Notes under the pieces: model-generated | Seen by the model: only the letters and a program-made list of their open reading frames with translations | Told to the model about the DNA's origin: nothing | Databases searched by the model: none | Position numbers and translations under genes: made by a program | NCBI GenBank assembly: GCA_965215185.1 | Contig: OZ244034.1 | Coordinates: 2,432,001-2,496,000, forward strand | Direction of reading: 5' to 3' | Length of the DNA stretch: 64,000 nt | Source: Acidimicrobiia bacterium | Lineage (GTDB): Bacteria > Actinomycetota > Acidimicrobiia > Spongiisociales > ZC4RG35 | In this document: piece after piece, positions 17,458 through 20,846 of the stretch | Position numbering within the stretch: position 1 is the stretch's first letter | Layout of the letters: each line of letters starts with the position of its first letter

Positions 17458-17817
17458 ATGCAGTTTCTCACAATCAAAAGCTCAACACCACAAAAACCCA
17501 TCTTGCTCACCGATTCGGCGGTTGCCAAAGTCAAGGCCCTGCTGGCCTCGGAGGGGGAGGACAATCTCGGATTGCGCGTGGCGGTAAGGCCGGGCGGGTG
17601 CTCGGGTTTCTCATATGAAATGTTCTTCGATGCCGACGTGGAGGAAGAGGACATCATCGCCGACTTCGAGGGTGTGCGGGTGCTGGTGGATTCGCAAAGC
17701 GCCAAGCGCATCAGCGGAGCGGTCCTTGACTACCGGGAGGGCTTGATGGATTCTGGGTTTTCCATCGACAATCCCAACGTAACCCGCTCTTGTGGGTGCG
17801 GCAACAGCTTCTCCTAA
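17458..17817 (+). CDS. A-type Fe-S carrier (ErpA/IscA/HesB family)
   Basis: PGGCSGFSY and C-terminal SCGCGNSF. Confidence 0.93.
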   Translation: MQFLTIKSSTPQKPILLTDSAVAKVKALLASEGEDNLGLRVAVRPGGCSGFSYEMFFDADVEEEDIIADFEGVRVLVDSQSAKRISGAVLDYREGLMDSGFSIDNPNVTRSCGCGNSFS

Positions 17818-17825
17818 AGAGAACC

Positions 17826-18206
17826 ATGCCAAAACAGGTTCCTCAGCTCACCGGTGCTCCCCCTCCCCTCGCTCCCTACTCTGTGGTTACCGAAGCGCAG
17901 GGGTTGGTTTTCATCTCGGGCCAGATAGCCCTCGATCCGCAAGGCGGCCCAACCCCCGAATCGGCCACCGACCAAGCCGACCTTATTCTCAGAAACATCG
18001 GGAACATATTGACAGAACTTGGCCTTGGCTACTCTGACATCGTCAAAACCACAGTCTTTTTGACAGATATTCGCGACTTCGCAGCGGTCAATGGTGTCTA
18101 CGGCGGATTCTTCGACGGGCCACCCCCCGCCCGCTCAGCGGTGGGAGTGGCGGCTCTACCTCTACCCGGCCTGAAAATCGAGATCGAAGCGATCGCCGCC
18201 CGCTGA
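17826..18206 (+). CDS. RidA family reactive-intermediate deaminase
   Basis: PYS, FISGQI, KTTVFL..FAAVNGVY, PARSAVGVAALP..IEIEAIA. Confidence 0.93.
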   Translation: MPKQVPQLTGAPPPLAPYSVVTEAQGLVFISGQIALDPQGGPTPESATDQADLILRNIGNILTELGLGYSDIVKTTVFLTDIRDFAAVNGVYGGFFDGPPPARSAVGVAALPLPGLKIEIEAIAAR

Positions 18207-18221
18207 CCTTTCGTTCAAGAG

Positions 18222-18244
18222 GGGACTTATATACCTAGGTTGAC
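18222..18244 (+). repeat. Left terminal inverted repeat
   Basis: GGGACTTATATACCTAGGTTGAC, exact reverse complement of 19605-19627; extends inward to 27/29. Confidence 0.95.
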
Positions 18245-18290
18245 AGGGCGCCGAATATTTTTGTCACAGGGGTGGGATATTCTCAGGATC

Positions 18291-19614
18291 GTGGTTCCTT
18301 GGGTGCAGACGATCCGGTTGAAAGGGCGTTGTTCCCGTTCGGCGCACCGTCGCCTGGACGACATCTTCCGCGCAGTGTTGCGAGTTGTGTAACGCATGCC
18401 TGGAATCTTGGAAGGGCACATACCGGTGGTGGAGGGAACACCATCCCGATGAGCCTCTTCCCCTAGAACTGAACCAGTCTCACTATGACCGCCTGGTGAT
18501 GTTCACAGATGTGCGCAAGGACCATCCTGAGTGGGACCGTTTGAGCCTTCAAGTGGGTCGCGGAACGTTGCGCCGCTTTGACCGGACTATCCAATCCTTC
18601 TACGAGAGGTGCAAGGACCCTTCCAAGAAGGCCGGGTTTCCCCGTTTCAAGCCGCGTCACCGGTGGAAGTCGGTAGAGATTGTGAACGCTGACCGCGCGA
18701 TGCTTAAGGCTCCGGGAGAGAGGAAGAACCACAGCGAGAAGTGGTGGAGACTGACGGTGAAAGGCGTGCCGCAGATACGGTTCGAGGACAAGCATGACCG
18801 CCTCATTACCGCGTTGGAGAGCGGCCGGTTGGTGGAACTGCGAGTGGTCCGCACTCCTCTGCGAGTCGAGATACACGCGGTTATCAAGCATCCTGACCGC
18901 CCACCGGTGGCAGATCCTGTCAATCCTGTGGGTTTGGACAAGGGCCTCAAATCGCGTCTGGTCACTTCTGATGGAGAGCACCTACCACCCACAACCGTGG
19001 ATCTGCGACAGGTGCTGCGCGTTCAGCGTCTGTTCAGCAGATCCGTCAAAGGCTCACGGTCTCGCATCAAGAAGCGCAAACACTTAGCCAAACAGCACCG
19101 CCGCCTGCGGGAACAGGCCATCCAAGCCGATTTCCGCCTGGCCGACCGCCTGGTCAAGGCCTACGACAGCATAGCTGCCGAGAAGCTCAATGTCGCCCGA
19201 CTACTGAAAACCAAGCTGTTCTCCAAGAAGATGTCACAGCAACGCTGGGGATCCTTCGATCTCATACTGGAATACAAAGCCGCGAAAGCTGGTATCCGGT
19301 ATGCGGGGGTGAACCCCAGCCACACCTCCACCGGCTGTTCTCGATGCGGGCATCACCAGAAGATGCCCCTCAACGTGAGAACCTTCCGGTGCGAACAGTG
19401 TGGACTATCCATATGCAGAGACCACAATGCTGCAATCAACATATGCGCCCGAGACTATCCCACCTGGGATCCTTGGGGTCGGGTGGGACATGACCTCGTG
19501 TTTCCCGACGCGGTGCGCTCTACAAATCTCTGTTGTAAGACATCTTTCGGCTCAGGCCGGAAGATGCTGGCAGACACCGCAGAACAGTATCACCTAGACG
19601 CTCCGTCAACCTAG
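18291..19614 (+). CDS. tnpB: TnpB RNA-guided endonuclease with an apparent +1 frameshift near 18368
   Basis: RuvC-I GLDKG, RuvC-II AAEKL, Zn finger CSRC/CEQC, RuvC-III RDHNAAINI, GFPRFK. The N-terminus MVPWVQTIRLKGRCSRSAHRRLDDIF (GTG 18291) joins AQCCELCNACLESW if one C is removed. Confidence 0.88.
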
Positions 19615-19627
19615 GTATATAAGTCCC
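19458..19627 (+). ncRNA. Putative omegaRNA (reRNA) scaffold overlapping the tnpB 3' end
   Basis: Hairpin TCCCACC..GGTGGGA (19458-19488); GCGGTG (19510-15) pairs with CACCGC (19575-80), enclosing TACAA/TTGTA and the 11-bp stem CATCTTTCGGC-TCAG-GCCGGAAGATG (19541-19566); position typical for TnpB guides. Boundaries approximate. Confidence 0.55.
19605..19627 (-). repeat. Right terminal inverted repeat (contains the tnpB stop codon)
   Basis: GTCAACCTAGGTATATAAGTCCC; TAG at 19612-19614. Confidence 0.95.
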
Positions 19628-19628
19628 T

Positions 19629-20846
19629 TCAAAAGACCTCTTGGCACCAGGGCTGGGGATGCCAATCGAACATCGCATCGGCCAGCGCCCAAGCCGATGG
19701 CGCCCCTCGCAAACGTCCCACCATCCCAAGCCGGCGAAACCGAGACCGACCCAGGAAGCTCGCCCCCAGGTCCTCCATATCGAGAATGAGGTCAGGTTCG
19801 TCGCAGACCAGACGACACGATCCCACCCCTCCCACAACCTCCAGGCGATATCGGGAGGACTCGTCCTCCATTGGATCGAACACCTCGATGACGATTGACC
19901 CGTCAGCCGAGTAGCGCCGAGCGGAAAGGGCGACCGGCACATCCAGGATCCTCACCCACAGGCCGTCACAGAGGGTTTGGGACTCTCGAAAGTTGGAGAA
20001 CAGGTGATGCAGGGCTGTCTCGGCGGGGATGTTCCAAGCCTGAAGACGGCTAATGAGATCCTGGTTCACCAAGAAACTCCACAGACCGGAATAGGCCTCC
20101 GGGGTGAGCGCAATCATCTCTGTCAGCAGAACGGTTATCCCCATGGAAATGCCAACCCATGAACCCTGAGTGCGGTACTGCACATATCCGATGGCTTCGC
20201 CGGCGGAGTCAAGCGCCAAGGCGTAGCGGTAACTGCTGGCGTTTTTCCTGTGCCGGGGGTAGTCACCGAGGACTTCCAGTTCCCACCAGGCCGGCGAGCG
20301 GGCAAACATCCCTGGCACCTCTTGGCGCTTGCGTTCGAATATGGGCGGCAAGGCATCCTTAGCCTCAGTGGAATCGATCAGGACGACCCGCGCCGGCCGG
20401 GGCGCCAGCCGGTGTGGAAGCAGCGGAAAGCTATCGATCACCAATTGGGTAGTAACTCCGGCCGCTCCGTATCCAAACCGGCCATACAACGGAGCCTCCG
20501 ATGCCCACAACACGGCCAGCGCCTCCCCTCTCTGCCGGGCATCGGCCAGCAGGTCGGTCATCATCCGGCGCATCAACCCGCGTCGGCGATGACTGGGGAG
20601 CACCGTTACATTGCTTACGCCGGCGGCCGCCACTTCCCCACCCGGGATGGTCAAGTCGAAGCTGTAAACCCCGGCCGCGCCTACCAGCCGCCCTCCGTCG
20701 AAAGCCCCCCGGTTGCGGTCGAGTTCCAGGAGCCGGCGGTCTCTCTCCTCTTCGACGGGATCGGGATCCTGTCCGAAGACAAGGGCCACCGTCCGGCGCA
20801 ACGCTTCCAACTCCTCGGGAAAAACGCCCCGTATCTCCACATCCAT
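19629..20846 (-). CDS. Eis-like GNAT N-acetyltransferase with C-terminal SCP2 domain
   Basis: VTVLPSHRRRGL, LWASEAPLYGRFGYG, LWVRILDV..LSARRY, C-terminal PWCQEVF. Confidence 0.92.
   Translation of the reverse strand: MDVEIRGVFPEELEALRRTVALVFGQDPDPVEEERDRRLLELDRNRGAFDGGRLVGAAGVYSFDLTIPGGEVAAAGVSNVTVLPSHRRRGLMRRMMTDLLADARQRGEALAVLWASEAPLYGRFGYGAAGVTTQLVIDSFPLLPHRLAPRPARVVLIDSTEAKDALPPIFERKRQEVPGMFARSPAWWELEVLGDYPRHRKNASSYRYALALDSAGEAIGYVQYRTQGSWVGISMGITVLLTEMIALTPEAYSGLWSFLVNQDLISRLQAWNIPAETALHHLFSNFRESQTLCDGLWVRILDVPVALSARRYSADGSIVIEVFDPMEDESSRYRLEVVGGVGSCRLVCDEPDLILDMEDLGASFLGRSRFRRLGMVGRLRGAPSAWALADAMFDWHPQPWCQEVF

Follow-up and report, generated by a model that had tools for sequence, protein, structure and literature searches.

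A tnpB element with IS1595-type ends in an Acidimicrobiia genome and the predicted guide-RNA scaffold at its right terminus

TnpB in transposons with inverted ends

TnpB homing is understood for IS605 and IS607 elements: where their transposases have acted, the site is left scarless and contains a fixed motif, which also serves the nuclease as its target-adjacent motif (TAM). Retention or homing has been shown for TnpBs of these elements. Less clear is what TnpB contributes, if anything, to a DDE transposon whose targets vary, a question to which the locus studied here, from an Acidimicrobiia bacterium, relates. In the window, by which we mean the whole stretch of 64,000 nucleotides that was analysed, positions 18222-19627 form a single 1406-bp element with tnpB as its sole gene. 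The element is bounded by terminal inverted repeats (TIRs) with a 23-bp core free of mismatches (Table 1), which lies in a longer inverted repeat at 18219-18250 / 19599-19630 (32 nt, 91%), and by an 8-bp target duplication. The last 180 nt of the element may encode a TnpB guide-RNA scaffold that takes in the right TIR, in which case the guide would be read from the flanking DNA.

The closest described systems are in print. DDE-transposase-associated TnpB branches with inverted ends, together with solo TnpBs that have the same ends, were reported by Altae-Tran et al. (2023, PNAS; PMC10691335), and Fanzor guide-RNA scaffolds include the TIR (PMC10711439). The main text of the former names IS630, while a 2026 review lists ISL2, IS630 and IS1031 and describes such TnpB-DDE pairings as rare in prokaryotes (PMC13565253). 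IS1595 is named in the main text of neither paper; the supplements, which lay outside the search, may name DDE families. A literature search for IS1595 and TnpB returned no title or abstract that joins the two.

Like the DDE-associated TnpBs, the protein studied here lies inside an element with inverted terminal repeats, and solo elements are presumably mobilised in trans (PMC10691335). The 3' end of tnpB is within 250 bp of the transposon end in those branches (PMC10691335), and here the stop codon lies 13 nt from it. Unlike in those branches, tnpB and a transposase never share an element here (0 of 54 IS1595 loci). The parts of the literature covered describe no guide-RNA boundary, pseudoknot or TAM for the DDE-associated branches of PMC10691335, and they contain neither a prokaryotic TIR that acts as a pseudoknot strand nor a one-base TAM candidate.

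Fanzor1 and Fanzor2* share with our proposal a TIR within the scaffold, a guide that lies past the transposon end and a nuclease carried by a non-autonomous element with TIRs and target-site duplications (PMC10711439). The pseudoknot is kept in Fanzor2 and TnpB (PMC10711439) and is proposed here too. In contrast to Fanzor, the element is prokaryotic and its TnpB is of ordinary size (440-470 aa); moreover, the variable 8-bp duplication is more likely to fall in the guide than in the scaffold, and we see as candidate TAM a single G just 5' of this duplication.

The full proposal would be that a TnpB of prokaryotes was adapted to a cut-and-paste DDE transposon of the IS1595 type, that one 23-bp sequence serves both as TIR and as 3' scaffold of the guide RNA, with hairpin and pseudoknot, and that the ribonucleoprotein (RNP) polices loss of the element at variable insertion sites without sequence specificity. 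Taken as a whole, we regard this as possible but doubtful. If true, it would provide a bacterial counterpart of Fanzor and a case of RNA-guided homing that serves a transposon without a fixed target motif, and a single base would tell an empty site (G) from an occupied one (terminal C of the TIR). The family offers a compact testable case, with a TIR-sharing scaffold, a candidate one-base TAM, many intact and decayed copies and candidate transposases in sister genomes. For annotation, it would mean that guide prediction in TIR-bounded tnpB elements should begin after the TIR, and a short TAM would be attractive in compact genome editors.

The element family and its probable mobiliser

Judging from its relatives, the window element is one decayed copy of a family of ~1.4-kb non-autonomous transposons and not an IS605 element. 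The window's own genome (G000; 3.12 Mb, single contig) contains 27 matches to it, among them two full-length copies, 92% alike, whose match to the element ends exactly at the TIR ends. Relatives are present in 6 of 16 congeners, and 24 genomes that represent other genera of the order have none; one further Acidimicrobiia metagenome-assembled genome (MAG) and two Ca. Spongiisociaceae MAGs were added by scanning GTDB species genomes. Across G000, its congeners and these two Ca. Spongiisociaceae MAGs, with repeats of the same site removed, there are 21 independent insertions of tnpB elements flanked by 8-bp duplications, of which 17 are perfect and 4 have one mismatch. The duplications are rich in A+T (80%, compared with 41% in the flanks). 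Elements measure 1252-1472 bp, and tnpB is the only gene of at least 300 aa in those checked.

The family resembles IS200/IS605 elements with an ISDra2-type TnpB and omegaRNA in its protein family, in a predicted RNA that overlaps the tnpB 3' end, in a layout of stem-loops and a possible pseudoknot and in a scaffold that, as proposed here, ends at the element boundary. It differs from IS200/IS605 and IS607 elements by its 23-bp TIRs and its 8-bp target duplications, which take the place of the subterminal hairpins and the fixed target/TAM of 4-5 nt found in IS200/IS605. Furthermore, no Y1 transposase (PF01797) was matched in G000 by a search whose control was positive in 6 of 14 genomes and which did not extend to serine TnpA.

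Within the Ca. Spongiisociaceae MAGs, two members (L073 4942-6324 and L080) have tnpB, the TIRs and 8-bp duplications preceded by a G. These MAGs lie outside the class Acidimicrobiia of the other holders, which suggests horizontal transfer. In genome G011, at least six copies of ~1377 bp (L068, L084, L077, L069) are up to 99.6% identical and occupy different sites with perfect duplications, and their tnpB frames are shortened or interrupted. A 3.5-kb element of G000 (C1:952908-956420; L011 1009-4521) shares the TIRs of the family and is flanked by perfect 8-bp copies of its target, ACAGAAAA. Its three ORFs (640, 170 and 253 aa) match no family, and the element retains some of the 3' part of the omegaRNA.

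The main tnpB frame (18385-19614) matches Pfam PF07282 (4.8e-22) and PF01385 as well as NCBIfam guided_TnpB (8.4e-46), and structures of ISDra2 TnpB were matched at 3e-9. The RuvC D-E-D triad and the zinc finger are kept among 12 aligned members (GIDxG, E and RDxNAA motifs, CxxC pairs). Among ten intact members, every one of the 45 pairwise dN/dS values falls within 0.15-0.33; by this measure, TnpB is under purifying selection. In the window copy, the first ~25 codons lie in a different frame (within ORF 18240-18392) from the remainder, and one extra base is present near 18368. We regard this copy as frameshifted because contigs of other copies omit the base. The sequencing runs listed for this sequence comprise four from one study, available as contigs, and no RNA run; over 17700-20150 the short contigs end at the repeat, none spans the element, and no empty allele was seen among them. 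Its start probably lies near 18292, as in a sister copy. On this evidence the window copy is a pseudogene, which could act only with TnpB supplied in trans. The stop codon was originally noted as falling inside the TIR and is found there, at 19612-19614.

Mobilisation in trans by an IS1595-family transposase is probable because the TIRs and the AT-rich 8-bp duplications match those of transposase-bearing IS1595-family elements in sister genomes. Such elements (PF12762 with PF12760) occur in the congeners G009 and G007 and are flanked by perfect AT-rich 8-bp duplications. The TIR of L098 (G009) agrees at 21 of 23 positions with the right-hand TIR of a tnpB element in G000 (1844345-1845777), that of L099 (G007) at 22 of 23 positions with a solo end of G000 (473159-473181), and a third TIR subtype is shared as well. 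ISApl4, a member of the IS1595 family, produces A/T-rich 8-bp repeats (PMC12561309). The family thus compares with IS1595 in its GGG-initiated TIRs, near-identical to those of the congeners' transposase elements, in its A/T-rich 8-bp duplications and in the existence of cargo forms and miniature inverted-repeat transposable elements (MITEs). What sets it apart from other IS1595 derivatives is a cargo that is an RNA-guided nuclease, the use of the TIR by the predicted RNA of this nuclease and a one-sided G next to the duplication.

Two candidates were rejected in the search for a mobiliser. The 640-aa ORF of the 3.5-kb element has no match in Pfam, NCBIfam, PDB or Atlas and occurs only in G000 among 41 genomes; a paralogue of it, 70% identical, lies at G000 1955730-1957637. 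A TIR-like pair at G000 C1:1865160 and 1870858 was considered as an autonomous element and encloses housekeeping genes (greA, mgtE and a nadE-like gene) over 5.7 kb. The pair consists of two inverted partial right ends (omegaRNA 3' part and TIR), and its flanks are near reverse complements, not direct repeats, as might result from an inversion or a composite relic.

Two further loci touch on the IS1595 connection. At G000 C1:472016-473181 (L020 1603-1959), solo TIRs are identical at 22 of 23 positions to the TIR of the G007 IS1595 element, and an ORF beside them combines a TnpB C-terminal remnant (zinc finger, RuvC-III-like motif) with an unrelated C-terminal part. The IS1595-family element L098 741-3486 of G009 carries, next to its transposase, a passenger protein of 450 aa in which an N6/N4 DNA methylase is fused to an HNH nuclease.

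The predicted scaffold, its end and the one-sided G

The 3' end of tnpB has a conserved RNA-like fold, which we take as the predicted scaffold of a guide RNA. From the window sequence alone, an omegaRNA-like scaffold had been proposed that shares sequence with the end of tnpB and continues into the right TIR; covariation now supports it. To assess the fold, 30 distinct right ends were aligned with MAFFT over the 185 nt up to the last base of the TIR, and a structure placed by hand on the window row was scored. The region 19440-19627 folds with a minimum free energy of -74.1 kcal/mol (z -3.76; 1 of 200 shuffles as good). Taken together, six helices, including the unsupported stem at 19521-37 discussed below, are paired in 83.3% of cells, compared with 37-48% when partners are slid by 1-3 columns. 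The covariation score is 0.268 against 0.142 in shuffles, and none of 500 shuffles reaches 0.268. G-U pairs are common, with 10 of 30 sequences at one P1 position and 9 of 30 at another position; as they would be C-A mismatches on the other strand, this points to the tnpB-sense strand.

Helices P1 to P3 covary (Table 1). The long-range helix P2 encloses the conserved UACAA...UAAGAC stretch and P3, and at one of its pairs AU occurs 15 times, GC 13 times and UA once. Both P2 and the variable hairpin P3 were part of the original prediction and hold up across the family; the pairing percentage of P3 comes from the MAFFT alignment, which partly misaligns this hairpin. Two other stems fared less well. 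The stem at 19521-25 / 19533-37 is paired in 64% of cells with compensatory change at 0 of 5 pairs, and 13-20 of the 30 sequences are unpaired at three of them, so that we do not retain it. A further stem at 19458-64 / 19482-88 does form 7 bp in the window sequence, but it belongs to a subfamily-specific insertion that most relatives do not have, and it competes with the covarying helices P0 and P1. The near-invariant CGCAGAACAGUAUC is read in all three frames across subfamilies (AEQY, RRTV, QNSI) and is hence conserved as nucleic acid and not as protein. Rfam contains no family that matches 17500-20500 at E up to 10, except for a chance lncRNA match. When RNAalifold was applied to the MAFFT alignment, P3, P4 and the pseudoknot described next were not among the predicted elements; they were scored instead by the hand-placed structure and by folds of single sequences.

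The apical loop of P1 contains an invariant GGGAC (19485-19489), which is complementary to the last five bases of the element, GUCCC. Their pairing holds in 96% of cells over the 30 right ends, with two pairs changed on both sides (AU 23, GC 3, GU 1, other 3; CG 24, AU 1, UG 1, other 3). Outside the genus both strands are altered, to GGGGCC/GGCCCC in L073 and to GGGGA/UCCCC in L080, and L022 and L049 keep the pairing through G-U. The pseudoknot of TnpB joins the apical loop of stem-loop 1 to five nucleotides next to the guide, and it is required for an IS607 TnpB (PMC10711439). GGGAC/GUCCC is a possible guide-adjacent pseudoknot at this canonical position.

The terminal hairpin P4 has its 3' arm in the inner and outer right TIR. 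P4-like hairpins are found in most subfamilies with different sequences (GAUAGU:ACUAUC, GAAGG:CCUUUC, GAA:UUC). Over 27 distinct pairs of arm and TIR, which are not phylogenetically independent, an arm pairs with its own TIR at -4.41 kcal/mol compared with -3.51 ± 0.33 kcal/mol for permuted partners (p ~0.004). We regard P4 as a moderate argument for a scaffold that ends at 19627.

Two models for the guide had been proposed originally. In the first, the scaffold includes the TIR, ends at 19627 and is followed by a guide from the flank; in the second, it ends at GTCAA (19609) and the remaining TIR is the guide. We lean towards the first because of the pseudoknot that GUCCC can form next to the guide, the pairing of the outer TIR in P4 and the lack of a target for the second. 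Whether conservation ends at 19609 or at 19627 had been suggested as a check; copies are alike up to 19627/19628, which both models expect.

With the scaffold ending at 19627, the last 180 nt would be transcribed and bound by TnpB as P0, P1, P2, P3, the unpaired AGAACAGUAUC and P4. The right TIR would then have a dual role: as DNA it would be the end recognised by the transposase, and as RNA its inner and middle part would provide the 3' arm of P4, while the terminal GUCCC would close the pseudoknot with the P1 loop. The guide would consist of the first ~16 nt of the flank, that is, the duplication and host DNA, a length assumed by analogy with known TnpBs. As originally noted, a flank guide in the window would be antisense to the 3' end of an eis-like gene; it overlaps the last codons of a GNAT ORF (19629-20846) on the minus strand. 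The RNP may recognise the empty allele (G, 8-mer and flank) and spare the occupied site, in which the terminal C of the TIR replaces the G, thereby discriminating self from non-self. Cleavage of the empty allele would favour repair from the element-bearing copy and thus retention or homing.

The base 5' of the left duplication copy, oriented by tnpB, is G in 20 of the 21 independent insertions (binomial 3.7e-10 against 29.5% G in the flanks; ~6e-8 after correction for 160 tests) and in 27 of 32 flank pairs when degraded ones are included. The base after the right copy is A in 9, C in 5, G in 5 and T in 2 cases, without a mirror-image preference for C. The rule holds in L080, in a 275-bp MITE (G011) and in a 520-bp deletion derivative (G003), while the 3.5-kb cargo element has C at this position. 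Among five transposase-bearing IS1595 relatives, a small control, 3 of 10 sides fit G/C and no such rule is apparent. The G stands where the last base of a TAM would fall if the guide begins at the first base of the flank, and in the occupied site the terminal C of the TIR takes its place. We infer that it is a TAM-like one-sided signal and a candidate TAM. This weakens the objection, raised originally against a flank guide, that DDE insertion gives no fixed TAM. The duplications show a second orientation bias: read in tnpB sense over the 21 sites, they contain 52% A and 28% T.

Several points weigh against a scaffold that ends with the TIR and serves an active TnpB. The bases of the pseudoknot double as the TIR terminus and are constrained by the transposase, so that their conservation is no independent evidence; compensatory change comes from about two lineages (L073; L063/L080), and one pair each is broken in L026, L007 and L023 within the genus and in L063 outside it. 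In the window subfamily, a 10-nt insertion in the P1 loop can draw GGGAC into weak G-U pairing. Several subfamilies have a weak P4 (-0.6 to -2 kcal/mol), left ends fold on their TIR too in several subfamilies, and some of the P4 pairing may stem from the ends as DNA. A TAM of one base would be unusually short; the transposase could have an asymmetric preference that accounts for the G, and the control for it comprises only five transposase-bearing elements. The window tnpB is frameshifted, and the only intact copy in G000 (1952618-1954021, 468 aa) is divergent, 54% identical over the aligned part. As to mobilisation, the 54 IS1595 loci give no TnpB hit, and among the seven tnpB-positive genus genomes a full transposase is present in G007 only, with a 163-aa fragment in G002 and a 96-aa fragment in G000. 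No PF12762 match was obtained in G003 or in G011 (95% complete, 10 contigs), despite G011 copies that are 99.6% identical at different sites, nor does either genome contain a longer element with these TIRs. Loss of the transposase, an unbinned replicon or another enzyme may explain this.

Competing readings and further observations

The folds might instead be features of the DNA ends, bound by the transposase or forming hairpins, or leftovers of an IS605 ancestor; the G would be a transposase preference, and TnpB and its RNA would have no role linked to the TIR element. That left ends also fold on their TIR fits this reading. So does the state of the genes: three 92%-alike copies in G000, the window's included, are broken at different places, the most recently active subfamily (G011) has shortened or interrupted tnpB frames, and TnpB in cis is clearly not needed for transposition. 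However, the dN/dS values over 45 pairs argue against it, and P1-P3 lie 50-150 nt inside the element, are specific to the right end and covary with many G-U pairs. A symmetric TIR gives the transposase no obvious means to orient by a one-sided G, and the transposase-bearing relatives, a small sample of five, do not follow the G rule. We therefore consider such an absence of an RNA-level role unlikely.

The main structural rival of a scaffold end at 19627 moves the boundary outwards, as in Fanzor. The guide RNAs of Fanzor1 and Fanzor2* include TIR and target-site duplication and reach ~15 nt past the latter (PMC10711439); by the same geometry, the scaffold here would comprise TIR and 8-bp duplication, the guide would begin at 19636, and the A-rich 3' part of the duplication would be the TAM. 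Positions 5-7 of the duplication are indeed A-rich (A in 12, 15 and 11 of 21). Yet the sequence of the duplication is variable and hence no fixed part of a scaffold, occupied and empty sites would share TAM and target, and the strongest signal, the G 5' of the duplication, would be left unexplained. This boundary seems to us rather improbable.

We give little credence to the second of the original models, in which a core of the IS200/IS605 type (18245-19609) sits in a palindromic 41-bp site, the outer TIR from 19610 is the guide and TTGAC is the TAM. Its geometry is canonical for IS605, as TTGAC adjoins the left boundary and GTCAA closes the right one, and the joined flanks make a perfect 18-bp-stem hairpin; the arithmetic of this empty hairpin (18222-18239, TTGAC, 19610-19627) is correct. 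The targets would be such empty hairpins or palindromic MITEs, but a search of 17 genus genomes for foldbacks of 28-58 bp bounded by these ends gave none. None of the 18 outer-TIR 16-mers (up to two mismatches) in G000 follows TTGAC; they are preceded by GTCAA, GTCTA or other sequences. A Y1 transposase is missing from G000, as reported above. A change in one of the two boxes is matched in the other (GTAGAC/GTCTAC), as expected of positions within a TIR, and the whole unit is flanked by 8-bp target duplications. Moreover, P4 pairs 11 of the 18 bases proposed as guide, and the P1 loop has no UUGAC to pair with GUCAA.

Finally, it is scarcely credible that the outer TIR guides self-excision with GTCAA as TAM at both ends, TnpB cutting both junctions ~18 bp from the TAM and driving mobility: GTCAA with the outer TIR is indeed present at either end of all copies, the cut distances known for TnpB would place cleavage close to the junction of transposon and flank, and no IS1595 transposase was detected in G011 and G003, which nevertheless contain recent copies, but the pseudoknot and P4 argue against this guide as they do against the previous one, a nuclease leaves integration and the 8-bp duplications unexplained, the active G011 copies have damaged tnpB, and such cleavage would be self-destructive.

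Table 1. Coordinates of the tnpB element, its ends and the predicted RNA features (window positions)
Feature	Position	Strand	Remarks
Candidate 3'-most TAM base	18213	+	G directly 5' of left duplication copy
Left target-duplication copy	18214..18221	.	8 bp, TTCAAGAG; 7 of 8 positions same as right copy
Left TIR	18222..18244	+	perfect 23-bp core
tnpB, frameshifted	18292..19614	+	ORFs 18240-18392 and 18385-19614
P0 hairpin	19448-53 / 19472-77	+	within tnpB 3' coding tail; 88.7% paired; 3 of 6 pairs changed on both sides
P1 stem-loop	19478-83 / 19504-09	+	98.9% paired; 3 of 6 pairs changed on both sides
P2 long-range helix	19510-15 / 19575-80	+	96.1% paired; 4 of 6 pairs changed on both sides
P3 variable hairpin	19541-51 / 19556-66	+	67.9% paired; 9 of 11 pairs changed on both sides
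Near-invariant unpaired AGAACAGUAUC	19581..19591	+	invariant columns in two alignments
P4 terminal hairpin	19587..19620	+	GUAU-C-ACCUAGACG (19587-19600) with CGUC..UAGGUAUAU (19604-19620)
Right TIR	19605..19627	+	final five bases GUCCC (19623-27), proposed 3' strand of pseudoknot
Right target-duplication copy	19628-35		8 bp, TTCAAAAG; one mismatch to left copy
Proposed guide	19628..19643	+	duplication copy TTCAAAAG and 8 flank bases; placed by pseudoknot position and G at -1

The element sits in a short spacer between a RidA-like gene (17790-18206, PF01042) and the convergent Eis-like GNAT gene, whose ORF matches PF13527, PF17668 and PF13530. In the window subfamily only, the untranslated region at the left end (18271-18287) is complementary to the P0 region at 19448-19464 (17 nt, 88%).

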